A stretch of 64,000 nt of DNA, taken from Microbotryum violaceum. Taxonomy: Eukaryota. The notes beneath the pieces were generated by a model, which was not told the origin of the DNA, searched no databases, and saw only the letters and a list, made by a program, of their open reading frames with translations. This document shows, in pieces, positions 10,713-56,419 of this stretch. Location: the NCBI GenBank assembly GCA_001244265.2, contig LN717261.1:558001-622000 (forward strand). The letters are read 5' to 3'. Positions within the stretch are counted from its first letter, which is position 1. Each line of letters opens with the position of its first letter. A program made the position numbers and the translations under genes.

Positions 10713-11079
10713 GGAGGAAAAGGGAAGGAATAAGAGTAGGATGGGACTGTCTATAGCCCCTCCAACCTCATGTTGTTGTTGAGCCCCTAAAGCCGGTGTC
10801 ACAATGTAGACAATACGCCCTTTCTGAAGCAGAGTCGTGCGCTTGAACTTTCAGCGCGGAGTTAGGACCCATGAAAGCTCAGCCTGAGGTGCGTCAGCTC
10901 CTAATACCGCTTGCGCCGTGCATTTGTTTAGCGAGCAAAGGATGTCTTGTAGTTGCAGCAGGGCTTGAGAGAAAACCGAAGGGACCGTAGTGTAACAACA
11001 CGGACGGCCTTAGTGGAAATAACAAATCAAAATAAGCAAAAATTAGAGGGAAAGGGAAGGAGGGTGGGAAGGTTCAAGG

Positions 11080-11665
11080 ACGAAGGATCGCTTTGCGAGG
11101 CGTAGCGCGATGGAGATTCAGTAAGACAGAGCAACTAAGACAAAGACAGTAGCCCCAGCGTAGTAATATGGCATACCTTTGCGAGGCGTAGCGCAAGCGT
11201 CAAATAGAAGATTTGAGGGTTGGCAGTCTCGGCGAAGGTTATCCTATAGGGTGCTACGTATTAGTTTGGGCGCGCCCAACTAGGACGCTCCTGAAAGACA
11301 GACGAAGGGTCATGCAGAGGTGAGTCACGGAGACCACTTGAACGAGTAGGGGAGCGATTTGAGAACGTCAACAACTAGTCGAGCGTACTCAGACCGGCTC
11401 GAGGATGGGCGCGTGGCCGCTAGGAATCGTCGAGTCGCTTTTTTTCCCGCGGCAGACGCGTGATGCTGTGCGGGTCGTTGGGAGGTTGACTCGCAGGCAA
11501 TTGCGAGGTAGATCGAGTGCAGCCTTGAGCAAGGTGAGATTCGACTTGTAGAGGGTCACCGAGACGAGCAGCACGATTGTAACAGGATCCAGACGACGCG
11601 ATCAGTGAAGAGCGAAGCCTAGCCTGGAGGCGCTGAGCGCTGAGCGCTCCGGAGAGGCCGGCCGG
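11080..11665 (-). mobile_element. Non-coding terminal-repeat relic of the DIRS/Ngaro-type YR retrotransposon family
   Basis: Shares CTTTGCGAGGCGTAGCG x2, TTAGTTTGG.GCGC.CCAACTAGG and CGCTGAGCGCTCCGGAGAGGC with 44235-44880 and 55247-55951. Confidence 0.75.
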
Positions 11666-17026: not shown

Positions 17027-20000
17027 AATCCCAAACGTGTATTTTGTTGCTGCCAACGTGCAGTCAATCAATGAAGACCGTAAGCGTGCCTCTCTTTTCT
17101 CCAATCTCCGCTCCCATAACGCCGACGTCTTTCTCCTGAGCAAAACTGGCCGACCTTCCCCGAAAGGGTGGCCCAGTGGACTCAGGAGTGCCAAGACTTA
17201 AAGTTCTCCGCTCTTTTCACTCCTTTCAACAACACTGCCATACTTTGGAAGAGCGACTCCGTGGCCATTACTTTTGATCCCGAGTCGCCTCCAAACACTC
17301 TTCGTGCCTCTTTCTCTTTCCCGGACCGAGTCATCAACGCCATCTTTTGTGTGGGTGATTCAAAAGTCCGGGTTGTATCAATATACGTGCCTTCCTCCGA
17401 CAAGCCAGACAAAAAACGCTTCCTCTCACACCTCAGCACCGCCCTCCAACAAGTTGTACGTGACGAACCCTCGCCGCCTGCACTCCTAGTCGGGGGGGAC
17501 TGGAATTGTGTTGAGTCCCAGCCCCTCGATTCGGAGAACCAAAACGGAACGAATTATGGGGTCAGGAGATGCGCAACCTTGCCACGGCCAACAATCTTTT
17601 CGACACCTATCGGCTCCATCATCCCAAAGGACATGGCACGACGAATCGCTCAGCGCCCGGCACGTGCCGTCGCCTTGATCGCATCTATGTCTCGCCTGAT
17701 TGGGTCGACCTCTTCCATGATCACAAAATTTGGGCTCCTGTCCTCAAATCGACGCACTCAATGGTTGTGGCACGGTTCCAAGTGCCGGGCGCAATCGACA
17801 TTGGTCCGGGCAAATTCAAGCTGGGTTTGCACGTGATCGAGGGCGACGCGACCTGCGAGTACCTCACCTCCATTGTCCGCACCCTTTACAACAAAGCCCT
17901 CCTCCAGACGCCCAACGATCCACCAGCAGCTTGGACATCCACCAAACACCGCCTGCTGCCCGAGCTGCAGGCTCTGGCCCGGGCTTTCGCTCGGTTCCGT
18001 CGTGGTGGGTCGGAGCAAGAGAGGGCTGACCACTCGCGCTACGGCGCGGCCCTGCGGTCCCGCCTCGACCCATCTCTGGCGGGTCCCTCTTCCATCTTCA
18101 TCCGCCTGCGCAAAGTGCGAGCATCCGACCTGATCCCTTCGCTCACGGTCGACGATGTTGTTCATTCCGACCCTGATTCGATGCTTGGAGCGGCCAGCGA
18201 CTACTTCGAGCGGGTCTATGAGGACCGCCCCATCGATGACGCGGCCCTGAAGGCGATCATCGACGGCCTCGCTTCAACTCGCCTCTCCCCCGCGGACTCA
18301 CTCAAGCTCAAGGAAGCGTACCCGTTGGAGGAGATGACAAAGGCTCAAGCGGCGTGTAAGTCGAACTCTTCGCCAGGGCCTGACGGCCTCCCGGTTGAGT
18401 TCTATTGCGCTACGTGGCCGGCCACTGGCCCGATTCTTCGAGACGTCATCAACTCAATCCCCACCGAGGCCCGTCAACCTGGACCTCTTCCCCGCAACAC
18501 CGCCCACATCCATCTCATCCACAAACGCGGCGAGAGGGATCAGCTTTCGAACAAACGCCCCATATCGCTCATTAATGCGGACAAGCGCATCATCTCGCAA
18601 GCCCACAACCAGCGCCTCGCTCCCTTGCTCGAGTCCCTGATTGGCCCAACCCAACGTGGCTTTGTTCCGAACCGTTGGATCGGCACAAACATCGCTGAGG
18701 TCCAATGTCTCATGGACCCTGGACTTCCGGGCTCAACACCCGTGTCTGGCATGCTAGCGGTGATGGACTATGAAAAGGCTTACGATCATCCTTCCCACCC
18801 GTACCTTGATGCAGTCCTCTGCGCCGTTGGCCTCGGCCCCAAAGCCCGCCAATGGTACCGAGCGACCTACCCCAACCAATCTGCCTCGATCTTCCTCAAC
18901 AGTTGGCTCTCTGCCACTTTCGACATCCTGTTGGGCGTTCAGCAAGGTGATCCTTTGGCTCTGCCTCTCTTTGTCCTGACGATCAAAGGTTTTGCCTGTC
19001 AGATTCGATTGAGAGTCAAGGGCATCGATATTGCGGGCCACCAAAACGTTCGCGAACTCCTTTTTGCCGACGACGCTTGCTGCGCACTCCACAACCTCTC
19101 GGACCTCGACCACCTCAATCGGGCGATCGAGCTTTACGAACGGGCAAGTGCCAGCAAGCTCAGCAACGTCAAATCTTTCCTCTACCCCCTTGGAGCTTTT
19201 CGGGATCGGTCGATTACCCCAGATCTCGGGACCTGGCGTCTCAGCGATTCGCAGTTTCGCTACCTTGGTATTCAGGTCGGGGTGGAGATTGCTGAGGATG
19301 CGGGCTGGGAAGATGTCAAGGCCTTGACCATCGCTCGGATACGCTTGATTCCGATGTAGGATCTCCCATATGCAGCCAAGTGTTCGATCATCAACATCTA
19401 CTGCTACACAAAGATCTTGTACTACAGCCAATTCCTTCCCGCCCCAAGAGCGTTGTCAAGGAGATCGAGGAGGCCGCCATGCTCGCCATTCACGGTCGAG
19501 CTTCGGATGGTACTCAGCGACGTCCGAAGGTCTCCCGGTCGCGCCTCTGCACCCCTCTTGATCACGGCGGCTTTGGTTTGATTGATCTGCCTCGGCGTCT
19601 AGCAATCAATCACGCGAAGTGGGTCTTCCAGCTCCGGGCCCGGACAGCTGCTTCACACGCCACCTCTTCGACATCCGCATCTGCCTCCAGGCACCAAACG
19701 AACCAACCCCTTTCACCTTGTCCAGACCGGCCCCAACCAGCATCGTTGCCCTTGGATTTGGATCTGGTGGGCTTACTTTTGCCATCCTCCCCCAAAGTGG
19801 GACCATGCAGTGAGAAAAATGACAAAACCTCTTCCTGCTCGTTGGGTCCGATACTTCGAAACCTGGGCGTTGGTGACCACGCTCAATCCCCGGAACTCTC
19901 CAAGAGCCAGAACCTCGAGCAATGGGCGACGCACGTACTCTATTTCCCAGCGGGCCACGGAATACAACTCTCGGTAAACCCGACGCTTTTTCGAGGGCCC

Positions 20001-20564
20001 GATGGCGAGGTGATGACCCCGTCTTCGTTTGTGAACGCGTCCAAACGCCACCAAGTCTTCATCTTCCCCAAGGGACACCAGAAGGTATTCGATCTGCCTG
20101 AGCAACGCTGGAACGCTTGGTGGAAGGCTTTGCACAAGGTTCGCCGGGTTCACTCGGACGCCAAGGATACCGGCCACCTTCTCTCCCTGGGGTCCCTCCA
20201 TCCGGGAAGCCAAGTCGCCTCCCCAACCAGCCCACATCCCAACAATCGATCTACCTCCTGTGTGATGTGCCTCTCGGAAGCACCCGAGTGCCTGGTTCAC
20301 CTCGCGGTCGGCTGCCCATTTGCCCGGCGCCTCTGGTCTGCTCTGTCCCCGACCCCCACCCAGTCTTTGTGGACTTTGTATGCCCGGTTGTGTCTTGCTC
20401 GGAACGTCGACTTGTCGAACTACAAGTCCTCTTCTTTCACTCGATCTGGAAGCTCTGTTGCCGTCGTCAATTCTCGTCCGATCTTTTGGAACCAATCACC
20501 GAAAGAGTTCAAGGGGCTTCGAGCCTCTATCCAGGAGTCCAAGGGTCGCCTAGTGTCTCTGTAA
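17013..20564 (+). pseudogene. LINE ORF2 (apurinic endonuclease + reverse transcriptase + zinc finger), frameshifted
   Basis: VAANVQS, VGGDWNCV, RRLDRIYV, SPGPDGLPVEFY, KRPISLINAD, DYEKAYD, GVQQGDPLA, LFADD, FRYLGI, GGFGLIDL, CVMC..E..HLAVGC. Confidence 0.9.
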
Positions 20565-20865: not shown

Positions 20866-22176
20866 TTGCCTTTGATGTCGCTCCCGCCGACGCGTCTCTT
20901 CACATCGAGTTGTCCAAAGATGAGCTCACCCACTACTCGACCCTATCATCTACTCGAGGCCGTTGAGAAGGCAAACAGCTTCTCACAAACAATTGTCTAC
21001 CAAGCTCAACTATCGAAATTTCGGTCTAAGCTCACGCGTGTTTGGTTCTACACAGCCCACACACTTGAAACTTCCGCCTCAAGCTGTCGATGCTCGCGAT
21101 ACCAATTTCTCACTGAACTGGCCAACCTGATTGCCCATCAAGCTGCTCATAAGTGTAGCCACCTCAAGCTGTTCTACTCAAGGGAGGCCAATGGACTCGA
21201 GCGACCCAACTTGCGGAGAGGCAGGCGTAGGGTTTAGCAATACACAGGAAGGACGCAGTACAACACATTCAAGCGTCTTGAAAGGGTTGGTACAGTCCAT
21301 GGGACCATCTCGCTGCGAAGACATGGCGGGCACGACGAGGAGCTTGAACGAGATTCAGAAGAACGCCTATATTGAGGACGGCCGCATCCAAGTGAGTTGT
21401 TGCTGAATTTAGGAACGAAGGCAGCTGGATCTAATGTTTTGCCGGTCCTATACTTTTAGGAAAAGCTCCCTGAGAGAGACAAGCAGTATGGAGCGCTAGC
21501 ACAACGCTATCCTCATTTTGGATCGCTTGACGGAGCTGTAAACGCTGCCACACCATTGGAGATTGGATCTCTGATCTGCTTTGGCCTCAAGCGTGGCATG
21601 CATTCACTCAGCTGCGATCAAACTGCTTATGGAGAAGAAGCGCTGTCTATCGGAATTGGTGCATTGTTTTGAGTGGCAGTTGAGCTGTGAAGTTCTCGTT
21701 TGACATAAGTCTTGTGTCCTACAGTGCGACACATCTACAGCAGAGTGACACCAAACCACTGCAACCAAGACACGCTCGCCTCGTTGGTTCTACTCTCAAG
21801 TGTCGTCATACAGGAGCTTCGCCTCATCAAGAAAACATGCTATTCCACACACCTCATTGATGGCACTATGCCGTTCCGCATGATTGATGGTCGACAGGTC
21901 ATCGAGTCATTAGGCCCGTCAACGACTACATATCGTTCAACCACGGACTTTGCCTCATGTTACCCGGACGAGCGCCTAATCAGCACGAGCGCACATGCTG
22001 AGCGAAGGTTTGCCGCCCTTCGGAGCGTGCCCGGCCTGCGAGATGCCGCCGGCAGAACCTCTACAAGTCGCACAAATGCCACCGCAGAAACAAGGAGCTC
22101 AACTTCAGCAATAAGGAAAAGGAAGTCTGACAACGAAGCAGCGAGCCAGCCAGCAAAGCAAGGAAGGCTTGTTTGA
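20866..22176 (+). pseudogene. Spliced gene relic with possible SWIM-type zinc finger, probably transposon-associated
   Basis: CRCSRYQ...HKCSHL pattern; GTGAGT..TTTAG intron at ~21391-21459; downstream ORF ends in KRK-rich tail; no firm family call. Confidence 0.3.
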
Positions 22177-22413: not shown

Positions 22414-22519
22414 AGGATGACATTCAAATAGCAGGATAATTGTACAGTCTACGTGATTTCAGCGCAGAGGTTAAACAACCCAATACGAAGAAGAAACAAA
22501 ATCCATTCATCCTACATTC

Positions 22520-23680
22520 ATTGCCAAAACAGCCTGCATGTCGCTTGCTGCCGGACTTGGCTTCAAACACTCGTGCAATGAGATCCGGACGGTTGCATGC
22601 TTTGTCGTTTGGCCCCAGTGCAGCCTTGATTTTTGGTGATTCAGGAACGCACGTCATTGTGATGAGCAGCGGAGGCTTTCCATGTTTGACAACGCACGCC
22701 ATCGCATCCTGGTATCGCTGCATGATGTCGCGCGGTCTATTCTTGAACGTCGAGCCCAAAGTCGTCGAGCGTCCAATTTGGTCCGGGGTTAAGCCGTTGA
22801 TGCCTTGGGTTGTGGTGAGGCGTAGGTTTTCTTAATGCAACTGGATGTAATTGAGTCGATTGGTCTCAGCCTGGGAGTATCCTTCGATCACGAACGCCGG
22901 GAAGGGATGTTGAGTGCCATGCGGGCTCGTCGCGTTTGTGCAAGTAGAACGCAAAGGATTTGTGAACGCGAGACTCACCACCTTGACCCTCTTTACTTGA
23001 ACTTTGTCGTAGGTGTTCAAATACTCAATATCAATCTGTGCTCGAGCCTTAACAGAATGGAACACCCGAGAAGGAGCCAAAGATGCTTACGTTCACCATC
23101 ACCATTCTCTTCGTCCCCTTCCTCCTTGTCTTCACCTTCTTTGTTGCGGTCTTTTGGCGAAGAGTGGCCCAACTTGATCGAACCGCAAAGAGGAATGCTG
23201 GGGTGGAATCCATCTTTCCCCGCGGGGAAGAGTAGTGGGTACCGGAGAGGCATCCCAGACGGATGGAGCGAGCCAAAGATTTGGTACTTGGGCCGACCAT
23301 TGGGACATTGATCACCGTGCACCTGAGGAATAAGGTCTTGCGGTCCACGATCTCCCGTGTTGGTGTCGGAATCGCAGAACCGCATCGCCATTTCCGTGCT
23401 TGACGTCGGAAGGTTGTGGGTGTGTTGGCCTTGGCCTAGTGGTATGCAAAGGCGCAGGATCCACTCTTTGGCCGTATCCCAACCTGCGCGAGCGTTGACC
23501 AATGCAAAGCCCCTCACAAAGCGATTGTCGGTACGCAAGTTGGACTCGAGCTTGGTCAACGTAGATCTTTGTATGCGACTGTCTGCGCCGTTGGGTCCCA
23601 AGTTGTGTGTTGGTGGCCTCGGCCGGCTTGATGAGCCATGTCTGAGTAAAGGCTGGGCGTTGATTCACGGCAGGGATCAG
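22520..23680 (-). mobile_element. Helitron Rep (Helitron_like_N) fragment, degenerate
   Basis: LHPSGMPLRYPLLFPAGKDGFH; YSQAETNRLNYI; STFKNRPRDIMQRYQDAMACVVKHGKPPLLITMTC..RPDLIARVFEAK. Confidence 0.88.
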
Positions 23681-42475: not shown

Positions 42476-42929
42476 TGTAACGGTCTTGGTAAGCCGAAGT
42501 CCAACTCCGGTCCGGCTCAAAGATCCAGCGCAACTAATGCCGGTCCTCTCCTCACCTTCCTCTTCCAGAGAGCACGCCGAAACCCGAGAGTCGTCTTTGT
42601 TCCATAAGACTCCACCTCCTGCCTCAACCTTCCATCTGCCAACCCGGACATCGAGTATCGTGATCTCTCGCTTGTAGAAAACCTTTCATAACCTTCCATG
42701 GCTTTTACTATAAAAGCCGGCCATCTGATAGTTTCTCCTTTGCTTCCTGCAAGCAAAAACTCATACACATTCTCATATATTAACTCCTACCACACGCCTT
42801 TGCAATCACACTCCTTACCCTTCTCGAGATACCCTACAGTCCAAGTCCTGCTTCAGTTGCTTCACAGTCCTAACCTGATCCTCCCTCGAGAACTCCCTCG
42901 CACCTCGTCCCCGAAAGTCTAGCCTCAGC
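42476..42929 (+). mobile_element. Probable truncated LTR
   Basis: Starts TGTAAC, TATA-like TATAAAA at ~42708, pyrimidine-rich 3' half, shares CACCTCGTCCCCGA with the solo LTR at 14712-15175. Confidence 0.45.
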
Positions 42930-43152
42930 TGTAAGGCCCGTGCGCCTGGGCCTTAGGAAGAGGGGACGCGCGCCTGGGCACTCTTAGTCTCTCTCCAGCG
43001 ACTGATACGAGTGTCCAGGTGAGCACCAGGTGGATCAGAAGGCAATGTCATACCAGCAACTGATACAAGTGTCCAGTGCCAATTCTACATACTTTGGTCC
43101 TGTGATCCTTGTCGTCGCCGCTCAGGTGTACACTCCAACGGGGTGTATTACA
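42930..43152. mobile_element. Solo LTR-like sequence (223 bp) without matching TSD
   Basis: TGTAA...TTACA termini; internal repeat CCAGC(G/A)ACTGATAC(G/A)AGTGTCCAG; truncates the YR-element copy at 43153. Confidence 0.7.
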
Positions 43153-44880
43153 GTGGGAGCGTGCGGGCTTTATCCCAAGACGCTTCTTGGCTGAGTCGTC
43201 CAATCACTTTGGGATCCGCGGAGTAGGCCGTCACCGCACAAGCTGCATTGAGGCGTTCAAGGGGGTAGCGGTGGTCCTTGTCATCGGCGGGCTCTGCAGT
43301 GGGTACATGGATAGCGGGGGACGTGGGCTGGTACACTGAAGGGTACTGTTGCATTGGGGGTGCCAAGTGGGCTTGCAATGGCGCCGTTTGCGCTCGGTGG
43401 ATGGGCAGGCGAGCCGGAGCTGGAGCTGGAGCTGGGGACCCGGCGAGATGCATGAGTTCCTCCATCCTCTCGGATTCGATGTCTGCCCAATTCTGCTCTT
43501 CATCTTCGATGGCGTCTTGGGTAGAGACGAGCATTCCTCTGGGAGAGGTTACGAGTTGAGCAAGACAGCCGACTGGGAACTGAGTGGCGTCAAATTGCGT
43601 GGAAAACACGAAAAGACACTTCTCCACAATGACAATCCCGTCCGTTCCCCGAGGAAGAGCGTTGAGGTGGTAAGAGGGAACTTTGCCCACACCTTCTATC
43701 GTCACAATACTAGGGGGCCCGGGAACCGCAGCAGCCGCGGGCGCAGGCTGCGCAACATGGAAGGCGCCCTCCGCAAGAGGGGCATCGGGGGTCGTAAGTG
43801 CTGCCAAAGTCGCGCGCTTGCGGTAATAGCCCTCGTTCGTCCAGTATCAAGAGCCATTTGTTTCGAAAAAGCCTTCGACGTCTCCGGAAACCAGGGTGTG
43901 AGCAAGCACAGGGTGGAGCTTGCTGAGGTTATTGATGGCTAGCAGAGTATCCGTCGGGATGGCTCGCAACTGCCCGAGCCAAAAAACCAGTTTGATGTCC
44001 CCAGAGGGGTGGTTCCTGGTCGAACCCGCCTCAAGAAAGAGCTTAGTGATAAGATCCCTGCGCGCGTCCTCCGTTAGCATGTCGGCAGAAAGCGCCGCGT
44101 TGACTAGCTTGATTGCGTTGACTGTTTGCTTGAGCAAGCACGGGATCGGATTATCCTTTTCTAGGGGAGGCAACGACATGATCCTTGATGGCTCGCAAGG
44201 CGGGCTGTTTGAAGCTTAAAGGACCGAGAGATCGCTTTGCGAGGCGTAGCGATTGGGGATGATAAGTAACCGGGTAACTATGACAGAGGCACGGCGTAGC
44301 ATACCTTTGCGAGGCGTAGCGCAGGCGTTCAACACAATTGAACAAGCGTCTGGGAAGACTCCGCGGGAGGTAGCCTATGGAATGCTATGCGTTAGTTTGG
44401 TGCGCCCAACTAGGGTGATCCAGGAAAGGGTGGAGATCGTACAGAGAGGTTGCGGAGAGCTACTTGAGCGCGTGGCAGGCGTGCGTGCGTCAAGGGTTTC
44501 TGGAGAGCAGCAGGCTGCTGTAAGGTCCTGATGAAGGGAGACTGCCGAGTGAGCGACGGATCGCTTGGATAAGGATCCAATGTTGGAGGACCAACTGACC
44601 CTTGGCAGAGGGTGGCAGTGCTGGAGCAGCGAGCTGGTCCCAGAACGTGTCGACGGTGCAGAACCGAGGAGAGGGTAAGCGGCGCGGATGCGAGGCACTC
44701 GCAGAGAGGCTGAGGGCTCTGAAGAACTCACGGAGAGACCTAGGACGCTGAGCGCTCCGGAGAGGCTGGGAAAACGCTGAGCGCTCCGGAGAGGCTAGGA
44801 AAATACGCTGAGCGCTCCTGAGAGACTAGGATTGGCTGACGCTGAGTCAGGACTAGAATGCACGGATGCGCGCTTGAACA
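43153..44880 (-). mobile_element. 5' part of DIRS/Ngaro-type element; inverted duplicate of 46966-48664
   Basis: Near-identical reverse complement, same ORFs (MSLPPLEKDNP.., ..ALTTPDAPLAEG..). Confidence 0.95.
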
Positions 44881-44919
44881 ATGAGCGTGGAACTCTTACC
44901 GCTAAAGCTGAACAGACAT

Positions 44920-46231
44920 CACCTCACTTGGCGATTGGCGAAGGCCCGCTTTGCGAAATCTCACAGGTTCCACCATAACATGGTCGAGCGTCGAATCAAT
45001 GTCGGTGTTCAAGGAGTGCCTTCCATGGACGCCATCATCAAATCGTTCCAATCACTAGTGCAGGACCTGTCAGGCAAGGGACATTTGTGCCAACTTGTGC
45101 AGGTTCTGCGCATTACCAGTGTGGACAACGCCTCGGCCTTTGCCCATGTTGCCGGAGACTACTCAGCTTTCCTACACTTCGATGACGACTCCCTGTTCAA
45201 ACGCCCTAACACGACCTTGAAAGAGATCCGACCTTCGAGAATCGGCCTTCCCACTCGAGGCATCCCGGTCACCGCCCTTCGCCATGACTATGAGAAGGAG
45301 GCGGCTTGCGGTAGGTGCCACTTCGTTGGTCACGTGGGAACCTGCGAACTGGATCAGGAGAGGAAGCGAAAGGAGGCTCACAACGGCAACGGCAACACCA
45401 ACGCTAACAAGAACACCATCACCAATGACACCAACATTGTGGAGGCCAAGGCCCCCATTCCTGTGCCGGTTGTTAACAGCATCGCATCACAGAATCGCTT
45501 CGCTGGGCTCGAGGTTGAGGAGGGACAGGAGGAAGCGGTAACTGGTCAGAGTGGACAGGGGCCGGAGGAATCGGGGGAGGAGGACGCTGGTGATAAGGCG
45601 GATGACGAGGACTCGGAGGACTCGGAGATGGAATCGGAGGCGACCATGGTGTATGGAGGTCATCAAACTTGAGAGCGAGGACGAGTCGGTTTTAGAGGAC
45701 CGCGGAGGATCCGATGGAGAGGTGATTGATGAGGATGAGGTGATGGCGGATGGAAGGGGCGAAACAGAAGGCAAGGTGGCGACGGAGATGGAGGGGGAGG
45801 AGGTGGCGATGGAGGTGGACGATGTGGACGAGGCAGGGGGAGCGACGAAAGCGGAGAACGCGGAAGCGACGGACTTAGGGGAGACAAACAGGCTGGACAA
45901 CGACGACGACAGCGACGCAACAGCAACCGCCGCCACCGCTTCCCGCGAATCGACACCCCACGAACCAACCCCACCTTTGTCACCCGAAACTCTCGCCAAG
46001 TCGCTTCGCGAGGGGGAGGAGTGGGACAGGATCAGAGCAAAATGGGTTGAGCAGGTACGACTCAAGCGGGACCAAAGCATCGAGAGGAGGCTCGACGCTG
46101 AAGCCCCTTTGGTGCGTCACAACTTTGCCATGTGGGATGAGGATGGTGAGATACGTTCCATCTACATCAGGGGGACCGCTGCGAAAGAAGCCGGTAATGA
46201 AGAGGTCGCAGACTGCGGCGGACCTCAGTGA
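44920..46231 (+). pseudogene. Probable LINE ORF1/gag-like fragment
   Basis: [13 protein letters not shown] knuckle, [10 protein letters not shown] motif, long acidic tail split by a stop or frameshift. Confidence 0.5.
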
Positions 46232-46443
46232 CCCGAGTTGACGCCAAGCGAGTGATCATCAAAGGGAAGAGCCTTTTTGATTTTGATTTTTTTTAACTGG
46301 GGCACATAAATTGCAATCCTTTGGGTTGGCTGGGACCGCTACAAAAGGAGCTAAAGGAGGTTATAAAGCAACAACGGCAAGCAGTTGGGTGAAAGTCAAA
46401 CCCCTGCGCGCAAAGACTGTCACCTGTCACCACTCGTGCTTGC

Positions 46444-46926
46444 ATGACTGCAAATGAGCTGTGGAAGAGTTTACATGACAACCATGTCAGACTGATCTCT
46501 GATCAAGTTCGATTTTTAACGGCACAACTTCGCAATCTTCAATTCTCGAAAGGAAAAGAGATCATGAAGCACTTCACCAGTATACAAGATCTGTTCACTC
46601 GACTCGACGAGCTTGGCCGATCTTTTGATGACATTTACAAGTCGAATCTGATGCTGGACTTGGTCACTCATCCCGCCTGGGCTTCGACTTTAGACAATCT
46701 TCGTTGTCCGCTCGCTCCACCGGCGGAAATCATTACCTACACTCGGTCCAAGCTGACTTCGCTCGAACTTCAAGCTCGGTTCTCACCTCGATCTACTCCA
46801 ACTGTCGACAAACTTTCGGATATTTCGCCTACTACTCTTGCCGCTTGTATTTCGGACGCGAGTCAGGGAAATGGTGGAAAGCGGGGGGGGGGCTCGAAGA
46901 GGGACCAAGGACCGAAGCGCAAACCC
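46444..46926 (+). pseudogene. Copia gag (UBN2/Retrotran_gag_2-like) fragment
   Basis: TANELWKSLHDNH..LTAQLRNLQFSKGKEIMKHFTSIQDLFTRLDELGRSFDD; truncated at the inverted-repeat arm. Confidence 0.65.
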
Positions 46927-47637
46927 ATGTCTGTTCAGCTTTAGCGGTAAGAGTTCCACGCTCATTGTTCAAGCGCGCATCTGTGCATTCTAGTCCTGAC
47001 TCAGCGTCAGCCGATCCTAGCCTCTCAGGAGCGCTCAGCGTATTTTCCTAGCCTCTCCGGAGCGCTCAGCGTCCTAGGTCTCTCCGTGAGTTCTTCAGAG
47101 CCCTCAGCCTCTCTGCGAGTGCCTCGCATCCGCGCCGCTTACCCTCTCCTCGGTTCTGCACCGTCGACACGTTCTGGGACCAGCTCGCTGCTCCAGCACT
47201 GCCACCCTCTGCCAAGGGTCAGTTGGTCCTCCAACATTGGATCCTTATCCAAGCGATCCGTCGCTCACTCGGCAGTCTCCCTTCATCAGGACCTTACAGC
47301 AGCCTGCTGCTCTCCAGAAACCCTTGACGCACGCACGCCTGCCACGCGCTCAAGTAGCTCTCCGCAACCTCTCTGTACGATCTCCACCCTTTCCTGGATC
47401 ACCCTAGTTGGGCGCACCAAACTAACGCATAGCATTCCATAGGCTACCTCCCGCGGAGTCTTCCCAGACGCTTGTTCAATTGTGTTGAACGCCTGCGCTA
47501 CGCCTCGCAAAGGTATGCTACGCCGTGCCTCTGTCATAGTTACCCGGTTACTTATCATCCCCAATCGCTACGCCTCGCAAAGCGATCTCTCGGTCCTTTA
47601 AGCTTCAAACAGCCCGCCTTGCGAGCCATCAAGGATC

Positions 47638-49194
47638 ATGTCGTTGCCTCCCCTAGAAAAGGATAATCCGATCCCGTGCTTGCTCAAGCAAACAGTCAAC
47701 GCAATCAAGCTAGTCAACGCGGCGCTTTCTGCCGACATGCTAACGGAGGACGCGCGCAGGGATCTTATCACTAAGCTCTTTCTTGAGGCGGGTTCGACCA
47801 GGAACCACCCCTCTGGGGACATCAAACTGGTTTTTTGGCTCGGGCAGTTGCGAGCCATCCCGACGGATACTCTGCTAGCCATCAATAACCTCAGCAAGCT
47901 CCACCCTGTGCTTGCTCACACCCTGGTTTCCGGAGACGTCGAAGGCTTTTTCGAAACAAATGGCTCTTGATACTGGACGAACGAGGGCTATTACCGCAAG
48001 CGCGCGACTTTGGCGGCACTTACGACCCCCGATGCCCCTCTTGCGGAGGGCGCCTTCCATGTTGCGCAGCCTGCGCCCGCGGCTGCTGCGGTTCCCGGGC
48101 CCCCTAGTATTGTGACGATAGAAGGTGTGGGCAAAGTTCCCTCTTACCACCTCAACGCTCTTCCTCGGGGAACGGACGGGATTGTCATTGTGGAGAAGTG
48201 TCTTTTCGTGTTTTCCACGCAATTTGACGCCACTCAGTTCCCAGTCGGCTGTCTTGCTCAACTCGTAACCTCTCCCAGAGGAATGCTCGTCTCTACCCAA
48301 GACGCCATCGAAGATGAAGAGCAGAATTGGGCAGACGTCAAATCCGAGAGGATGGAGGAACTCATGCGTCTCGCCGGGTCCCCAGCTCCAGCTCCAGCTC
48401 CGGCTCGCCTGCCCATCCACCGAGCGCAAACAGCGCCATTGCAAGCCCACTTGGCACCCCCAATGCAACAGTACCCTTCAGTGTACCAGCCCACGTCCCC
48501 CGCTATCCATGTACCCACTGCAGAGCCCGCCGATGACAAGGACCACCGCTACCCCCTTGAACGCCTCAATGCAGCTTGTGCGGTGCCGGCCTACTCCGCG
48601 GATCCCAAAGTGATTGGACGACTCAGTCAAGAAGCGTCTTGGGATAAAGCCCGCACGCTCCCACGCAATGATCCGATTCGTCTCGAGATGGCGGCAGGCA
48701 TCATCAGGCTTAAGCTCCAGCGCCAAGGCGAGATCAAGATGGACGTGATTGAAGTCATGAAGATCATGTGTGGCGCCTACATAGACGTTTGCGACACAGT
48801 ACACCCCCAAGAGGCTGAACTCTTTGACTCCTACACTGACGAGAACGGCATCCAAGCGCGAGCCCAGCGAAAGGCCAGCAAGGTCAAGACTCTTGTTACC
48901 AACTTCCCCAAGTATCTCCGCGCTCTGAAAGAGATTCAAGCGGTCGAAAACGAGGTTTTTGGCACGTGGGCGGGAGCGGATTGGTCTCATTACCTCAAGT
49001 TCCTTGATGACATGCATGCGGGAGTGCACAGCGGCATGAAGGGCTCCAAGCTTCCGATTGCTTTTGATGAGCGTTTTCGGACCCTGCGCTCGGAACCAAG
49101 CGCTACGGTCACCTCTCTCCTCGAGGCCAGGATTGGCGGCCGACTTGCACAAATGGCAGCAAAGTCCTCAGCTCGTTCTGCCGCTCGGAAGTAG
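47638..49194 (+). pseudogene. YR-retrotransposon ORF1 (gag-like) with premature TGA at 47968
   Basis: ORFs 47638-47970 and 48010-49194 are in the same frame; paralogs read through as ..SRYWTNNG.. Confidence 0.75.
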
Positions 49195-49199
49195 ATTCC

Positions 49200-50773
49200 T
49201 CAACAACGGCGACAGCTCGGAAGACCAGGTCCCCCTGTCCCCGCACACCCTCCCGCCCCCTGGTCACCCTCCCCCCTCTCTCTTCGCTGGCATCGGGCCG
49301 GCACCCCGCATACAGCGCCAATTCCACTTCGAGGTTCCCACTTCAGACCCTCCCTCTACCCCACTTCTCACTTCCTCCGCAACCGGCCTGGCAGGGCCGC
49401 TCGCGCGCGCAACCTTCACCCCGCGCAACTTCACTCTATCCAGTGTGCAAAATGCATGTACCTGTCACAATTCAATTTGGGTCCGTAAAATCAAGGACAA
49501 CTCGTTCGAGACATTACTTTGCTCACATCCTGACCAGGACCTCGTCCAGTCTTTTGTTCTCGAATTTTGTTCAGAGGGGTTTGAACCAGAGCACAATGGC
49601 AGCGTGGCCTCTGGGGACGACCCATCAACGATAAACTTCCCTCGCTCGGAAACTCACCGGAGCTTCATCCAATCAACCATTGATGAAGAAGTTGGCAAGG
49701 GCTGGCTATCAGCGGGAACGTCTTTCCCCATCCCCGGCGCAACATACAGCTCCGTCTTTGTCGTAGAGTCAACCAATCACCGGATGCGCGTCGTCGCCGA
49801 CCACACAAGATTGGGCCTCAACGATGGGATCTCTCGGGCAGCTTGTCCCACGGTCTACAACATGATCATCGATTTCATTCGACTGCTTTGGTGGCACCGC
49901 TTTGCCTCCAAATTGCTGACACCCGATTCAGTTCTGTGGAAGCTCAACGTCTCCTCTGCGTTCAAAGTCCTCGTCATGTCAAAGAATTGGTGGGCTTGCC
50001 AAGGGATCGCAATCAAGAGGCGGTTGCCGGACGGTGATCTTGTCACGTGGTATCACATTGAGTGGCACGGCGTATTTGGTTGCCGGGCTATGCCCTATCT
50101 CTGGACCCGCTTCATGTTGCTTGTAGTTTGGATCACTCAGCAGTCCTACGGCATCGAGTACCCTCTGGCCTACATGGACAACGCTTTCGAGGTGGACGTA
50201 TTCGGTACACTCGTGCCCTTTGTTCACGACGGGGTCCAACACATGATACCCTCGCAGTAGGCGCAGATGGCGGACCTGTGGCAATCGCTCGGCCTCCCCT
50301 TCAAACTCTCACCGGGCAAAGCCCCCTTTGGCCGGCGGGTAACCATCACGGGGATCGATTGCAACTTAGACGACTTGCCACTACTTTGCCACACGCGCCC
50401 AGGCCGCACGTTCGAGCGGATCCAGTTCGCGGAAGCCCTGACGGTGGTCATCACTCTCAACATCGCTACATTGGGGGTGTTCGGGTCTTTTTGACGAGTC
50501 TTGGTTCGCACGGACTCCGCACCCGCAGTTTACGCGCTAGATTTGGGCGCGTGCTCGGACACTCCATTCCTCCTGCTGCGGACATTGACACTGCGGGCTT
50601 TCACCATCTCCGCCTCCCATCGCTTTGACCTGAACGTCCAACACGTTGCGGGTAAGAACAACACCACGGCGGATGCTCTGTCTCGCCTGCCTCTTCCGAG
50701 GCTTTGCCGGACCTTCCCGGCCTTTCATGACTTTGACCCCTCCTTGCACGTGCTGGAGGGGACACCATTATGA
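49200..50773 (+). pseudogene. DIRS/Ngaro-type reverse transcriptase / RNase H, internally deleted
   Basis: IDEEVGKGWL, MRVVADHT..GLNDGI, LWKLNVSSAFK, VFGCRAMP, YMDN (YMDD), RTDS..HVAGKNNTTADALSR. Confidence 0.85.
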
Positions 50774-51727
50774 CGACCTACCGCCCAGGGGGCGGACAAG
50801 GTGTCTCCTTTGCCTCCCGCCCCCTGCCCGGACCAAGCCTGCGAGGTTTGGTCCACCCACTGTCAGATGACCTCGAGTTTTCTGACAAGCTAGTCCTTTG
50901 TGCGCTCGAGCCTTGCAAGAGATCCGACTACCAACGCTCCCTTTGCCAGTGGTTGACGTATGTCCAGGTTCAAAACGACATGGACCTCAACCTCAGCTGC
51001 CACCCGACTGTGTCCACACTGCGCGCCTTCATCGCTCATCGCTATCGCTCCGTCACCGCTGTGCACCAAACGCTTTCTGGCCTTGCCCACTTCCTCGGTC
51101 CCATCATGGGCTTGATGTGGGAAGAAGTGCGGTCTGATCGCTTGGTTTGGGCCGCAATCGTTGGAGGGCAAAAACTCTGGAGGCACGCACCGGTACAGGC
51201 TAAACCCCTCCCCTTTGAACTGGTCAACAGCTTACTTGATTGCGCACTTGCCAATCCGCTGCTCGAATATGATCTTCTATGCTTTCTTGCAATGCTCGCC
51301 TTGGGATTCAGCGCCTGCGCAAGGAGTGGCAAGCTCACTCTTCCCAACACCATACGCTTTCGAGACACGGAGAAGCTACCGGACCGCGACTCTGTTGTCA
51401 TCTCCAAATCGGGCTTTCAAAGTGCTCTCCCTTTTCCTTGCGGCACGTGACTCTCGTTTTCGTACCTCAGGGAGCGGAGCAAAACTGTTCCTGTCGTCCA
51501 CCGGTTCCCCGCTGACTTGCACATGGTTTGTCATGCGCCTTCACGCGGAGTTTGGCAGGGCATACTCTGGCCACTCGCTCCGTTCCGGCGGCGCCACCCA
51601 CTACGCGCTCAGGGGCTTTCTGCCCGCAGAAATTCAACGCATTGGCCGCTGGAAATCAGCCGCATGGGAGGAGTACATTTGCATTTTGCCTGAGCTCAAT
51701 ATGGCGCTCCTTGCACACCAAAAGTGA
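50770..51727 (+). pseudogene. Tyrosine recombinase of YR retrotransposon (deletion/frameshift near 51425)
   Basis: LGFSACARSGKL (R box) and YSGHSLRSGGATHYA..IQRIGRWKSAAWEEYI (H-x-x-R, W, Y). Confidence 0.9.
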
Positions 51728-52264
51728 TCTTCATCTGCCGGTCATCAATCAAATTACAACATATATGACACGGTCCCTTTCGGTTTCTTGAGCCCCGCTG
51801 CAACATGACATCACCTCTCTCGCTAAAAATCACTGTGCAAGCGGCTTTGGAGAGTTGAACTGCGTCTGTACTGCTTGCGGGGAAAACGGACATTGGTCCA
51901 TTGACATGAAGTGCCCTCAACACAAACAACACTCCGGATGGAAATCCAAGTCTGGTAGTTTGGCTGTTGATGCAAAACGCGGTGACTGAAATGTCAACAA
52001 ACCATACCATTTACTCCATCAGTGAATCTTTGGGTGCCGCCCCGCTCCGAAACACGTACATTAACAAGGTCTAGTCTCTTTCAACTCCTCCATAGTGCGC
52101 GCTGTTTGTGGCATTTGTTTTAGGATGGAAGAGTCGAGTTGCAGTGATAAGAGAAAAACCCGCACTCTGTATTTTGGTATTGTTTTTGTTGATGATTCGG
52201 CAGATGTAAGATGAGGGTTTTCAGGAACCTTGGAGCGGGAGGGTGGGTGAAATTTTGATGTGCG

Positions 52265-54064
52265 TTATACAGGCAAATGAAGGTCAAACTGGCTGATGTA
52301 CAGCTGGATATTATGGTCAAATCCCTGATTCCACAGGGAACATGTAGGCCGTCCGCATCTGGATCTCTTGGCAATGTCGTGGTGGTGTAAAACTGGGCCG
52401 GTGTGAGGGCCTGGTTGATCAAATGAGGCTTGAATAAGGGCTCGAGACGATTTCTTGGTCCACTCAGCCTGACATTCATGCATCACAACGTCACCCCAAG
52501 AAGCTTGAAGCAGTGAGTGAATCGACAAGGAGTGGTTGGCAAGCATACGGCGGAACTGATCGTCGTATAGCACCATGAACTCGTAATCCCATGCAGGCCG
52601 GGCCGCCACTTCTTCCAGAAAATCGAGGTAGTGGACCCAATCGCATCCTTGGTGCGTGAAGAAGGTGGCGTTCTCAAGTGCCTCAAGATTCTTGAGGGCT
52701 TGGAGATGTCCAATGGGTCCTCCGAGAACGTCCAAATTCGCCTTAGACTTTTTTGAGTGGATCAACGCGTCGATGCCTTGATGCTGGCTTCCCTCCGTAG
52801 AAAACGTGTAGAAGAGGGAATCTTCGGCCACGTGGGAAGCCTCTGCGGCCGATACGAAATTTCCGCAAAGGACTTTCATTGCCTCGAGCACATCAAGCTT
52901 GATGCCATGGGTACTGAGGATTTTTGCCGTAACGAAATCTAGCCTGTACTCGTTGCCGTTCTTCATGAACCCTGCTCTTTTGTAGAACTCTTGCTTTTGG
53001 CGCAGTCCCAGCACGTAGTCTGGCAGCGGTTTCTGCCTGCTCGTAGGAGCGTTCAGGACACCGTCAAGGAAGTCCTTCAGCGGATCTCGTGGAGGGCCCG
53101 GATCGTCTGGATCAAGGGGCTGATATGTCAACAGGGTAGCCGGGGGCAAGTCGTTTTCGGGATTCAGTTGTTGTGAGGAAGGACGGAATGCCAAGGGCGG
53201 ATGGGGAGCAAGCGCGGTCGGTCGTGGTGCTGGAATTGCCTTTGACTTCTTGGCTCGGGGGTCTAGTTGACGTACTTGGGCCATTAGAGCTTCCCTCTGA
53301 GCCGCGGCGACTGCATCATCGTTTTCCCCTTCATCGGTGATATCCTCCCAGTCGAAGTCCATAGCGACGGGGCGTTTGGATGTGCGCGACGCTTGCTCGG
53401 ATCGATGCAGTGGTCTACCCGAAGGAGTCGCCGCTGAAGGAGGTCTCAAGACCCATCCACGTGGTAGACGGCTGAATTTATAGTCGACCTCGGGTGGGAA
53501 AGTAGCAGGGTCGATGTTGCCTTTGACAAAGAGGGCGGTATGGACCATAATCTGGCCTGCGCTGTCTTTTTTCAGCTCGTCAAAGGTGTAGGTAGGCAGG
53601 TCGCCCACATGTTCGATAGCGGTGACCCGTTTCAAAGGCGGGGGTGGCCCGGCGGACGATTGTTGGCGAAGACGATACAAAGCCATATTGTTCGTCCAAA
53701 AGTGCGCACCGTATCGGCTGAGATACTCGCTGGGGCGCCCGCATCCCAGAGCATGGGCGATCACGGGGTGGACATCGGCCTTCAGGAGCGCTTCCATGGA
53801 TAGGCTCTTACCCAAGGGCAGCTTAGCTAACTGAGGTTCCCAGAAGAGGAGTGTGGACGGGTCAGAGTCCTGCGCAGCGGCCTTGTATCCGTCCTTGAGG
53901 TTGGTGAGGGAGGCGACGGAGAGCACACTAATGTCGGAACCGTCCCACGCGCTCAGAGTCTGCAGCAATGCCGCCTCCGTCTGAGGCCCCGACGAAGGGA
54001 TTGGGTTCGAAGGGTCCCAATCGGGAGGGGCGTAGTTGTCGTCGGAGAAGGGGTCGATCGCCAT
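52265..54064 (-). CDS. Divergent YR-retrotransposon gag-like ORF (open ~600 codons; RT and YR not present downstream)
   Basis: LLFWEPQLAKLP..VHPVIAHAL..HFWTNN; KLDVLEAMKVLCGNFV; LQALKNLEALEN..DWVHYLDFL; YDDQFRR, all paralogous to 47638-49194. Confidence 0.7.
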   Translation of the reverse strand: MAIDPFSDDNYAPPDWDPSNPIPSSGPQTEAALLQTLSAWDGSDISVLSVASLTNLKDGYKAAAQDSDPSTLLFWEPQLAKLPLGKSLSMEALLKADVHPVIAHALGCGRPSEYLSRYGAHFWTNNMALYRLRQQSSAGPPPPLKRVTAIEHVGDLPTYTFDELKKDSAGQIMVHTALFVKGNIDPATFPPEVDYKFSRLPRGWVLRPPSAATPSGRPLHRSEQASRTSKRPVAMDFDWEDITDEGENDDAVAAAQREALMAQVRQLDPRAKKSKAIPAPRPTALAPHPPLAFRPSSQQLNPENDLPPATLLTYQPLDPDDPGPPRDPLKDFLDGVLNAPTSRQKPLPDYVLGLRQKQEFYKRAGFMKNGNEYRLDFVTAKILSTHGIKLDVLEAMKVLCGNFVSAAEASHVAEDSLFYTFSTEGSQHQGIDALIHSKKSKANLDVLGGPIGHLQALKNLEALENATFFTHQGCDWVHYLDFLEEVAARPAWDYEFMVLYDDQFRRMLANHSLSIHSLLQASWGDVVMHECQAEWTKKSSRALIQASFDQPGPHTGPVLHHHDIAKRSRCGRPTCSLWNQGFDHNIQLYISQFDLHLPV

Positions 54065-54452
54065 GAAGACTTTGATGGGGGATGAGTCGTGCAAAGTGAG
54101 AGTTGTCCCTGAACAGCTCAAAAAATATATAAATGGTCGATCGGCTTTGCTCAAAGAGCGCAGGTCCGATTAGTACCTAAACACTGCAACTGAATTGGGG
54201 GATAGGGCATACCTTTGCTCAAAAAGCGCAGGGCGATGGCAGGGGAGGAAGGCGACGCGGTAGGTAGACGCGGCCAAACGAGGTCTGTATACAAGGTAGC
54301 CCCATGAGTCAACTTGCCCAACAAGGACAAGGAATTTGGCAACATGCCCAACAAGGACAGTCGTGATCCGGAATGCGAACCTTAGCTAGAAACAGCGAGC
54401 CGCGATAGTGCGAGTCCGAAAAGTTCGCCGTTTGCGCACGCGAGATCGGAGG

Positions 54453-55951
54453 TCAAGCAGGGGCGGAGCCAGCAAGTTGTATGAGCTCATCCATTTGCTG
54501 ACTTTCCTCATCCACCCACTGGTCTTTGTCGATTGCGGCTTGGGTTGAGACAAGAGTACCCTTCGGCAAGGGAATCATCTGGAACACGCAAGCAGCAGGG
54601 AAATCCGCCATGTCAAGCTGGGTGGAGTCGACAAACAAGTGGTCAACAACGAGAATTTTGTCGTTGGTGACTCTCGGAAGGTTGTTCACCCGGCATGCTG
54701 GGACATTGCCCATGCCTTCATGGGCACGGTCTGCAGTTGCGTCGTCGTGCCAGGTGGCGCAGGGCGCGCCCCAGGGGCGGGGTCGGTACCGGGTGTGTTG
54801 CTGTCCGTGAGGGTCTGAGCCGGCGCTGAGGGAGCTCTCCTTCGGTATAGCCCGTTGTTGGTCCAGTAGCGCGAGCTGCTGGCCGCGAAGAAAGCGTCTG
54901 GGTCTTCGGAAACAAGGGCTGAGGCTACCACCGGGTGAAGGTCGCTAGTTGTCTCAGGCAAAAGTTTGACGCCGAGGGGGATGGCGCGAACTTGGGCGAG
55001 CCAAAAAGCGAGTTCGGCCTCCGCGGGCGAGTTCCTTCTAAACGGCCCGGCATCATCGCTCAGTTTCGAGATCAGATCGGTTTGGGCCTCCTGCGTTAAG
55101 CAGCCGGTGTCGAGCGTGTCGAAGACCAATTTGACAGTCTGTGTTGCTTGCGGAAAAGTCCCGGGAATGGGGTTATTCTTGTCGTAAAGCGGGGCAGACA
55201 TGATGGCGCGGCGGGACGTTGCGCTTTGGAAGCTCAAAACAGAGGTCTTTGCGAGGCGTAGCAAAGATTGTATTTAGTGACGTGCAACTATGACATGGGC
55301 TTTGCGTAGCGTGATAGCGTACCTTTGCGAGGCGTAGCACGAGTGTCAATGAGAATTGAAGCACTTAGTGCGGTCTCGGCGGAGGTAGCCTATAGAATGC
55401 TAGGCGTCAGCTTGGATTGTCCAACTAGGGCGTTCCGGTAGGGAGAGCAGTTTCGTACAAAAGCGTGTGCGGAGACTGCTGTGATGCAAGTGAACAATGA
55501 GTACGTCGTGCAACTAGCCGAGCGTAATCTGGACACTTACCTCGAGCGCGTGGCAGGGCCTGCGGGCGTCGAGCGTTTTCTGGAGGCAGCGGCTGCTGTA
55601 AATCCTGTGCGAGGGGGGCTTTGCGTGAGCAACGGATTGCTTGGATGAGGATCCTAAGGTGGTGGCTAACCGACCCTTGGCAGAGAGTGGCAGTGCTGGA
55701 GCAGTGGGCTGGCAACAGAAAGCGTTGACGGTGCGGAACCGAGGAGGAGTAAGCGGCGCGGACGCAAATACGCTTGAGGGGTGGAAACACTCTGAGGACT
55801 CAGGGAGAGGCCTAGGGATGCTGAGCGCTCCGGAGAGGCTTGGAAAGTACGCTGAGCCGCTCGCGGGGAGGGCTAGGCTCTAAGCACTCCGGGGAGGCTA
55901 GGAAAGCTGACGCTGAGTCAGGGACTGGATGCACGGATGCGCGCTTGAACA
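54453..55951 (-). mobile_element. 5' part of another DIRS/Ngaro-type copy (terminal region + start of gag)
   Basis: Ends ..GGATGCGCGCTTGAACA like 44880; MSAPLYDKNNPIP..LAFWLAQVRAIP..LHPVVASALVS. Confidence 0.88.
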
Positions 55952-56419
55952 TTGCCACATCAGCAACTTTGCCACTCGCGCTTTAGTGAAATTTAGTGAA
56001 ATTTAGCGCACTTTTAGTGTTCTAGAACGTTCTTTGTCTCGACGGCCGATCTATCTTCTACTAGGTTCGGCGGCGCGCTCCGCGCGCCACCTCACATTGA
56101 GAATCAGCAGTTCTGTTACTTTATTGCAGATGGCTACGGTTCTATGCTGCTTCAATCTATGCGCAATCATTTTTCCCTGATCTCCTGGAGGTGGCCTGAT
56201 TCATCGTGATTTGGCAAAGGCAGGGTCGGGCGGAAAACTTTGCGGGACCGAAACGGAACGCTCTCGCTCAAGCCTTTCCCGTTGACGACGTCTTTGCTGA
56301 CCTTGAGACCTTCGAGAGATCGCAGCGTTCACAGGCGGTGGATCCATTGGACGAAGTTGATCCTTGGGCAGTGGACGCAATGCAATCAGTGACTGTGCGG
56401 CGACATCCACCGCGACGAA

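Follow-up and report, generated by a model that had tools for sequence, protein, structure and literature searches.

A probable leader intron whose tail repeats the upstream exon end in putative Ngaro-like retrotransposons of Microbotryum violaceum

In a 64,000-nucleotide stretch of the Microbotryum violaceum genome (GenBank assembly GCA_001244265.2, contig LN717261.1, positions 558,001 to 622,000 of the forward strand; hereafter the window, with position 1 as its first letter), there are five copies, A to E, of what are, judging from their sequences, Ngaro-like tyrosine-recombinase (YR) retrotransposons of a Microbotryum-type fungus, and in each of them the last intron-like unit of the 5' leader ends with the very sequence with which the exon in front of it ends. 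In other words, a motif (M) of 17-20 nt occurs twice in each case, once closing the upstream exon (M1) and once closing the unit itself (M2). Intron-bearing retroelements are a known kind; what is new here is an intron tail that is kept identical to the upstream exon end. While the feature is real, the mechanism behind it is something that we infer, and we tentatively favor one in which the intron tail would mimic the spliced junction, such that complementary DNA (cDNA) copied from spliced RNA could switch to an unspliced leader, restoring the introns. The five copies make up four lineages, A and B being one, and their units are laid out as follows.

47443..47512, forward strand: exon e4 of copy A, 70 nt, whose last 17 nt (47496-47512) are M1.
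47513..47582, forward strand: intron i4 of copy A (the unit), 70 nt, GTATGC..AAG, whose last 17 nt (47566-47582) are M2.
44235..44321, reverse strand: unit of copy B, with M1 at 44305-44321, the intron at 44235-44304 and M2 at 44235-44251, found by both the motif search and the blind scan.
55247..55339, reverse strand: unit of copy C, with M1 at 55323-55339, the intron at 55247-55322 (76 nt, GTACGC) and M2 at 55247-55263; T starts both motifs.
11091..11194, reverse strand: unit of copy D, with M1 at 11177-11194 (18 nt), the intron at 11091-11176 (86 nt) and M2 at 11091-11108.
54145..54232, reverse strand: unit of copy E, with M1 at 54213-54232, the intron at 54145-54212 (68 nt, GTATGC) and M2 at 54145-54164; both motifs changed.

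The original prediction, made from the letters of the window, had named five such motif pairs with their spacings (47496/47566, 44235/44305, 55247/55323, 11091/11177 and 54145/54213), and all five stand exactly there. Namely, a search of the window for CGCTACGCCTCGCAAAG at up to 3 mismatches returns 8 matches, which form four pairs, with 0.20 matches expected in shuffled sequence and 8 or more reached in 0 of 100 shuffles, while the fifth pair, that of copy E on the reverse strand (54213-54232 / 54145-54164), reads CCTGCGCT(T/C)TTTGAGCAAAG and is identical at 19 of 20 positions. When the window was scanned blindly for 10-mers that immediately precede GT[AG]NG and are found again 30-200 nt further downstream, the five units came up and no other sequence did. 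From M1 to M2 the units measure 70, 70, 76, 86 and 68 nt; the donor is GTATGC in four of them and GTACGC in one (copy C), and the end is AAG in all five, so that the fungal-type GTAYGC donor with GT..AG ends described earlier is indeed present in 5/5 units. The same is true of the donor-like hexamer and the branch-like words, which were said to be kept in otherwise diverged spacers and are kept, as described, in every unit. These words are TTACTTATC, TCACTAAAT, TTACTGAAT and GTACTAATC; ACTTATC, ACTAAAT, ACTGAAT and ACTAATC stand approximately 23-35 nt before the 3' end of the unit, and if CTRAY is taken as the branch consensus, only the word of copy E (CTAAT) fits it. In the unit of copy E, one AG stands 5 nt ahead of the 3' end. 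As for the claim that every YR copy carries the arrangement, it holds for 5/5 leader-bearing copies in the window and amounts to these five copies, since the other reverse-transcriptase (RT) element here, at 15.6-20.5 kb, is a long interspersed nuclear element (LINE) and not a YR element. A side observation on the same stretch concerns GCTAC words, of which 4 of the 8 in the 4931-nt copy A fall within 140 nt (47443-47582), namely at the start of e4, in M1, at the intron start and in M2; they have counterparts in C and D, and there are none in the corresponding stretch of E.

The two copies of the motif are nearly perfect repeats of each other, with core identities of 17/17 in A, 17/17 in C, 18/18 in D and 19/20 in E, and where lineages differ, both copies differ together. 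In particular, the C lineage has T for C at position 1 of both repeat copies, and approximately 7 of 21 positions differ between the motifs of E and A, again in both copies, which confirms the joint change that had been claimed for the most divergent copy. The flanks behave otherwise: in comparisons of A, C and D, likeness is 59-68% over the remainder of e4 and 57-63% over the spacer, and the gag identities are 43-49% between A and C and 27% between A and E. Since a passive duplication would decay as its flanks do, repeats that stay alike while the flanks diverge are being maintained and are not a relic. We conclude that the repeat is actively maintained, and the earlier suggestion that something keeps exon end and unit end identical is borne out by co-variation in two lineages whose flanks are only about 60% alike. 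Because M2 equals M1, moreover, the spliced RNA (M1 followed by exon 5) and the unspliced RNA (M2 followed by exon 5) are identical over at least 30 nt across the leader/gag boundary; exon 5 starts with CGATC in A and D, with CCGATC in E and with ACCTCTG in C. The repeat is thus identical within an element and differs between families, as an R-like repeat would be, and yet it is nearly invariant among A, C and D.

Could the repeat be a passive mark left by the birth of the intron, without any function now? Such a mark could come from the target-site duplication of an introner, from the filler of a staggered break or from the ends of a tandem duplication, and introns flanked by direct repeats are indeed what one sees in the Rogers tandem-duplication model and in the intron gains of Daphnia. 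Introners, too, are introns with flanking direct repeats, and an exon end that equals the intron end is a known footprint of transposon-made introns with target-site duplication, as the available portion of one report has it (PMC12130899). As in these cases, the units studied here carry a second copy of the exon end as their tail, and their splicing restores the pre-insertion sequence exactly. However, the repeats of introners decay, and those found here have remained identical and co-varying. The spacers of the units share a core, TGTCATAGTTRC, at the same place, and from this common core and position it follows that the intron is old and of single origin, older than the split of lineages that now stand at 27-49% gag identity; over such a time the repeats should have decayed like the flanks, and they still match at 17/17 to 19/20 and have changed together. 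The spacer does not behave as a dispersed element either, as its core has 5 matches in the window against 4.16 expected, 4 of them within units. What is more, an origin by tandem duplication is at odds with the bodies of e4 and i4, which are unlike in 4/4 lineages (z of -0.25, 1.01, 0.35 and -0.17), and one of the Rogers type with the intron start, GTATGC.., which does not repeat the start of exon 5, CGATC... A functionless relic is, in our judgment, very unlikely.

It is very likely that the unit is a spliced intron. To see this, consider the contigs of four sequencing runs placed on positions 43100-56100, a stretch that excluded copy D and a further unit of the same layout in a sequence resembling a long terminal repeat (LTR), at 42995-43076. 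Run X1 is DNA, and runs X18, X19 and X20 are only guessed to be RNA; 15 of 26 joints and 24 of 235 loose ends were listed, and what we say about contigs refers to these. The 5' leader contains four or five short introns of spliceosomal type, of which the unit is the 3'-most; the others are the following.

47086..47183, forward strand: leader intron i1 of A, 98 nt, GTGAGT..CCAG; the identical sequence of B is removed in X20 (joint 44633>44732, CT..AC on the forward strand).
47218..47289, forward strand: leader intron i2 of A, 72 nt, GTCAGT..TCAG; joint 47216>47289 (cut +1), X19 at depth 5500, X20 in 2 contigs.
47375..47442, forward strand: leader intron i3 of A, 68 nt, GTACGA..CTAAC..ATAG; its counterpart in B is removed in X20 (joint 44373>44442), and a loose end in X19 at 44442 agrees.
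54285..54380, reverse strand: intron i3 of E, 96 nt, GTTCGC..ACAG; joint 54284>54381 in X19 (2 contigs) and X20.
55390..55540, reverse strand: introns of C, namely i2b at 55476-55540 (GTAAGT..CAG) and i3 at 55390-55458; the loose end 55389 (X19, X20) has both removed.

Four of these neighboring leader introns (in A, B and E) have GT..AG joints on the sense strand in X19 and/or X20, and none of the four joints is among the rows listed for the DNA run X1; X18 has no GT..AG joint among the rows listed. The neighboring leader introns are, in other words, clearly removed as GT..AG introns in the runs guessed to be RNA. For the unit itself, contigs of X19 and X20 that lie on e4 and M1 of copy B run on, at 44305, into CGATCC.., which is exon-5-like; at 55323, contigs of X19 (two) and of X20 run from the motif into ACCTCTGTTTT.., the start of exon 5 of C; and in E, a contig of X20 stops exactly at the exon end, 54213. 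Among the rows listed for X1, there are no such exon-to-exon overhangs. The other leader introns that could be read (n = 6) end in CAG or TAG and all 5 units end in AAG, and from this we gather that a tail identical to the exon end evidently takes precedence over an optimal acceptor. One leader intron is not shared by all copies: i2b (about 65 nt) is present in C, degenerate in D and without counterpart in A and B, where the gap (47353-47356 on the forward strand) lies 1-4 nt from a splice junction, and its lack in A and B reflects either intron loss through spliced RNA or a gain in C and D. On the leaders (47006-47439, 44402-44835 and 55252-55685), the summed contig depth of X19 and X20 is several-fold to more than ten-fold above that of most gene-body bins, and this excess is only a hint of abundant short leader RNAs, for example from solo leader-tail copies, as contig depth is a poor measure.

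What kind of elements are these? The parts that matter for the argument are listed here, and the putative assignment to Ngaro, a member of the order DIRS, is based on their genes and their termini.

46927..51857, forward strand: copy A, the whole 4931-bp unit, with leader (A repeat), gag, pol, YR and a 91-nt tail, defined by an X1 DNA contig joint, its flanks and its open reading frames (ORFs).
47639..49191, forward strand: gag of A, with its ATG at 47639 and one in-frame stop at 47968-47970.
51767..51857, forward strand: B tail repeat of A, 91 nt, similar to the tails of D and E; loose ends of X18 and X20 start at 51767.
43153..44919, reverse strand: copy B, which corresponds to the 5' part of A (97.8% identity) in inverted orientation.
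10905..11660, reverse strand: copy D, whole, an A-B solo without genes, its leader of about 600 nt joined to the tail.
52268..54063, reverse strand: gag of E, within a 634-aa open frame from 54169, 27% identical to the gag of A.

Copy A has, in this order, a gag-like ORF, a pol ORF and a 3' ORF with the tyrosine-recombinase motifs ARSG, HSLRSGGAT and GRWKS..EEY, and the PLAYMDD motif is present in intact homologues of its pol. Domain profiles give values below their cut-offs, with Phage_integrase of Pfam at E = 0.055 on the recombinase ORF and, on the pol homologues, RVT_1 at E = 0.0037 in 1 of 6 and RNase_H at E = 0.005 in 1 of 6. In the protein Atlas, 25 of 30 hits of the recombinase part fall in the PF00589 set (score 0.96), and the clusters neighboring pol carry RVT_1 and RT_RNaseH. 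A search with the pol ORF yields 8 proteins at E of 0.001 or less among 4806 candidates, and the sources of its homologues include Microbotryum silenes-dioicae, M. saponariae and Sporobolomyces johnsonii. Sequence searches of the PDB (with the recombinase ORF, a second element protein and a profile of the pol-type alignment) gave no meaningful match, an hhalign comparison of the homologue alignment with the gypsy RT and RNase H pieces of the window gave none either, and two metagenome scans (with an element protein and with the homologue alignment) found no relative. As far as the accessible part of a survey goes, Ngaro elements have gag, RT/RNase H, a tyrosine recombinase and split direct repeats in the order A-pol-B-A-B, and they are known in Pucciniomycotina and Agaricomycotina (PMC3783388). 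The elements described here resemble them in having gag, a pol with YMDD and a recombinase with the three motifs just named, in a length of approximately 4.9 kb, in the lack of a visible target duplication, in a B|A junction in DNA and in gene-less A-B solos. They differ in that no full A1-genes-B1-A2-B2 copy is found in the window, copy A being A-genes-B only, and in that the leader carries 4-5 introns. The repeat shared by intron tail and exon end is not part of the Ngaro description in the same portion of that survey, in which the word "intron" occurs 0 times (PMC3783388).

Over the 1767 nt that they share, copies A and B, which lie in opposite orientations, have 97.8% identity. Copy A is taken as a unit of 4931 bp because an X1 DNA contig joins 51857 back to 46927, and it splits a single copia gag frame. 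To the left stand exactly 178 codons of that frame (Retrotran_gag_2, E = 2.4e-7), and to the right, from 51858 on, it continues and includes a weak zinc knuckle (zf-CCHC, E = 0.002, which is below the cut-off); the two flanks, 46393-46926 and 51858-52079, bracket a precise insertion in which no repeated flank or target-site duplication is visible. Copy E adjoins the same copia piece tail-to-tail, and we therefore have a nest of YR elements in one copia. Copy E itself (about 52080-54416, reverse strand) has a leader, an intact gag-like frame of 634 aa and a B-like tail, without pol or recombinase, and is covered by RNA-type contigs; it looks like a gag-only, non-autonomous relative. Following the tail of D, the stretch 10830-10905 (reverse strand) resembles the first 55 nt or so of the leader of A (37/55 identical, including GTTCAAGCGC) and, read from its letters, would be a B|A junction and then a truncated further A.

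The position of the unit within the element leads to the mechanism that we tentatively favor. In D, the similarity to the leader of A gives way to the B tail about 24 nt past M2, and in the E lineage an X1 DNA contig joins 54131, 13 nt after M2, to the tail start at 52167; in other words, only 13-24 nt of the 5' A repeat remain after the unit. It has been observed, in the part of the report at hand, that tagged DIRS-1 loses its sense intron on retrotransposition, from which it follows that elements of this order copy spliced RNA (PMC7192593). Given such copying and the apparent intron loss seen here, the presence of i4 in all five copies leads us to propose restoration. According to this proposal, M2 would be a mimic of the spliced junction and a landing homology for reverse transcriptase. 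The abundant, translated RNA would have its leader spliced, and minus-strand cDNA made on it would copy the start of exon 5 and then M1. An unspliced leader copy, be it the A2 of an A1-genes-B1-A2-B2 element, a tandem neighbor or a co-packaged RNA, would end in M2 and the initial 13-24 nt of exon 5; the cDNA could then pair there and continue through the spacer and the whole intron-bearing leader, so that the daughter would regain all leader introns. The M2 of the daughter would be a copy of the M1 of the parent, the tail being overwritten each cycle, which would explain both the identity within copies and the co-variation between lineages. Daughters formed without the switch would lose the introns; we assume that these would be poorly expressed and found no lineages.

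Restoration by template switching between the repeats had been among the candidates put forward in the original prediction. It gives the best fit and is supported by the location of the unit 13-24 nt before the end of the A repeat, though the mechanism as such is a proposal. It parallels the R regions of LTR retroelements, which are identical within an element, family-specific and regenerated by strand transfer in each cycle; unlike M1 and M2, which lie 53-68 nt apart around an intron, they stand at both ends of the RNA. Intron rebuilding by reverse transcription is known only from engineered split-intron retroviral vectors, in which, according to the accessible text, an intron is assembled by template jumps during reverse transcription (Ismail et al. 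2000, via PMC3182074). The likeness is that an intron is rebuilt in the DNA copy from parts in terminal repeats; the differences are that the vectors are engineered, that their donor and acceptor lie apart on the RNA and that, in the text available, they have no repeat that mimics the junction (PMC3182074).

That said, a number of points weigh against restoration by template switching. Each step of the switch is hypothetical, the window contains no complete A1-genes-B1-A2-B2 copy, and that a downstream leader copy stays unspliced is an assumption. What is more, BARE replicates, by the account in the part of the report seen, from a separate pool of unspliced RNA (PMC3735527), and with a separate pool of this sort, restoration would be unneeded. 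Others concern the splicing of the unit. The check for junctions that remove it, which had been suggested earlier and was made here with contigs, succeeded in part: exon-exon overhangs were found in two lineages, but the i4 joint of copy A, 47512>47583, is not among the 15 of 26 joints listed. The overhangs are only 11-30 letters long and come from two runs of one study, both guessed to be RNA, and they belong to sister copies whose exon 5 is unlike that of the window; a contig of X18, on the other hand, crosses the unit of E unspliced. Moreover, because of the repeat, a splice product is indistinguishable from a repeat-mediated deletion. Finally, the motif is 16-17/17 among A, C and D though the flanks are about 60% alike, and since such near-invariance is not needed for a pure homology function, it points to an additional sequence-specific role.

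Just such a role is at the heart of a rival explanation, in which the two copies of M would be binding sites for a factor of the element, most plausibly Gag, placed just upstream of the donor and of the acceptor. M would then control the splicing of the last intron, or it would tag unspliced RNA as the form to be packaged, much as retroviruses do with a packaging signal located inside an intron, and the identity and co-variation of the two copies would be due to co-evolution of both sites with the protein. The conservation of the motif relative to its flanks (16-17/17 against 57-68% among A, C and D) suits this explanation well, and so do the fact that E, the one lineage in which both motif copies have changed, also has the most divergent gag (27%), the clustering of GCTAC-type words around the unit (4/8 of those in the 4931-nt unit within 140 nt) and the conserved spacer core, which as such is found only in these units. 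That said, protein sites rarely demand perfect identity over 17-20 nt, each change would require the same mutation twice, and binding by Gag is putative; what is more, there is no conserved RNA fold around the unit, where 4 pairs are predicted and 0 are compensatory. All in all, we consider binding sites an unlikely explanation, if one that has several observations on its side.

The identity of spliced and unspliced RNA across the leader/gag boundary suggests another possibility. Namely, M together with the first bases of exon 5 might form a cis signal that is needed before gag in both RNA forms, for gag translation, for priming or for RNA stability, with a separate unspliced pool being the one that replicates. 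The two forms do share at least 30 nt there, and exon 5 does start with CGATC in A and D and CCGATC in E; in C, however, it starts differently (ACCTCTG). A precedent for a leader intron with such importance exists in Penelope-like elements, whose 5' untranslated region contains an intron of about 75 bp that is spliced in most transcripts and whose deletion abolishes reporter expression, according to the portion of the report available (PMC2377424). Against such a signal, no sequence complementary to M was found at a conserved place within the elements, the motif region has no match in Rfam, and no tRNA genes were found in the 64-kb window. In addition, approximately 7 co-varying positions would need parallel double changes. 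We therefore hold a shared cis signal to be quite unlikely.

Three further candidates for the motif were tried and rejected. A recursive splice site at the M1|GT boundary lacks a conserved branch upstream of M1 in E; a conserved upstream ORF starting from the ATG of GTATGC is absent in C, which has GTACGC; and a tRNA-type primer-binding site is not what M looks like, as M is without a TGG start.

The original prediction had also raised a back-splice or circularization signal and paired recombinase sites, and neither has held up. In favor of the idea, circular intermediates have been proposed for this class of elements, and one head-to-tail joint is present in the DNA. However, that joint, 51857>46927, lies in the DNA run and approximately 570 nt upstream of M1, and as it is the only head-to-tail DNA joint listed, the motifs are not where element DNA is joined. 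Among the 15 of 26 joints listed, there is no backward one in X18-X20, the runs guessed to be RNA. The DNA joints listed for the elements, 51857|46927 and 54131|52167, both fall outside M, and M is a direct repeat without internal dyad symmetry, not a pair of inverted arms around a short core; a 70-bp circle would be implausible in any case. Circularization or recombination at M is, consequently, highly improbable. The 51857|46927 joint itself has a contig depth of 255, about single-copy, and could stem from a tandem pair, from a circle or from the B1|A2 junction inside a complete Ngaro element.

Returning to restoration by template switching, why would it matter? Retroelements copy themselves via RNA and should lose their introns, and it is a puzzle that Penelope-like and DIRS/Ngaro elements keep some. 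The elements studied here put this puzzle in sharp form, with 4-5 leader introns that appear to be removed in RNA-type contigs and are retained in all five genomic copies. Penelope-like elements are alike in being retroelements that keep a leader intron, whose need for expression would select for retention; they are unlike in their class and integration mechanism, and the available text on them describes no motif duplicated at exon end and intron end (PMC2377424). Literature searches found no retroelement intron with a tail kept identical to the upstream exon end, in line with the earlier claim that no description of this arrangement was known. If the repeat were a landing site for template switching, it would throw light on one step in the replication of Ngaro elements, a cycle of which little is known, and it would be a novel means by which selfish elements hold on to introns that enhance expression. 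It would also offer a natural solution to how retroelements keep introns that they need for expression, and a built-in natural marker by which the cycle could be traced, namely which copy of M templates which.

One more case of the layout was returned by a relaxed scan of the window, namely a 22/24 repeat at 42995-43018 / 43053-43076 on the forward strand, with GTGAGC after the first repeat copy, a unit of 58 nt and a CTGAT branch-like word inside the repeat. Its context, 42700-43152, is LTR-like, with a TATAAAAG box near 42740 and an end in ..TGTATTACA at 43152, and adjoins the truncated end of copy B. That an LTR-type sequence of this genome shares the layout with the YR elements suggests that the pressure behind it is a general one in the fungus. 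In the widest form of the argument, one would have a self-renewing intron, with replication via spliced RNA, a leader rebuilt in every cycle and the motif serving as an R region around an intron, perhaps reached convergently in LTR elements; we put this forward as a possible but doubtful generalization.

A few minor observations concern the remainder of the window. On the reverse strand at 21078-21172, the 10 nt ACAGCTTGAG precede GTGGCT and are repeated 85 nt further downstream, which may be due to chance, as the relaxed scan is expected, by a rough estimate, to give about 0.4 such hits. Other mobile pieces include an integrase core of rva_4 type at 13247-14450 (forward strand, E = 3.8e-34) and a Helitron_like_N fragment at 22427-22831 (reverse strand, E = 5.6e-17). 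The LINE-type element occupies 15658-20561 on the forward strand (RVT_1, E = 7.7e-17, with a weak endonuclease match and a weak zf-RVT match), and an 82% direct repeat, 14492-14708 / 16203-16415, lies upstream in its region.

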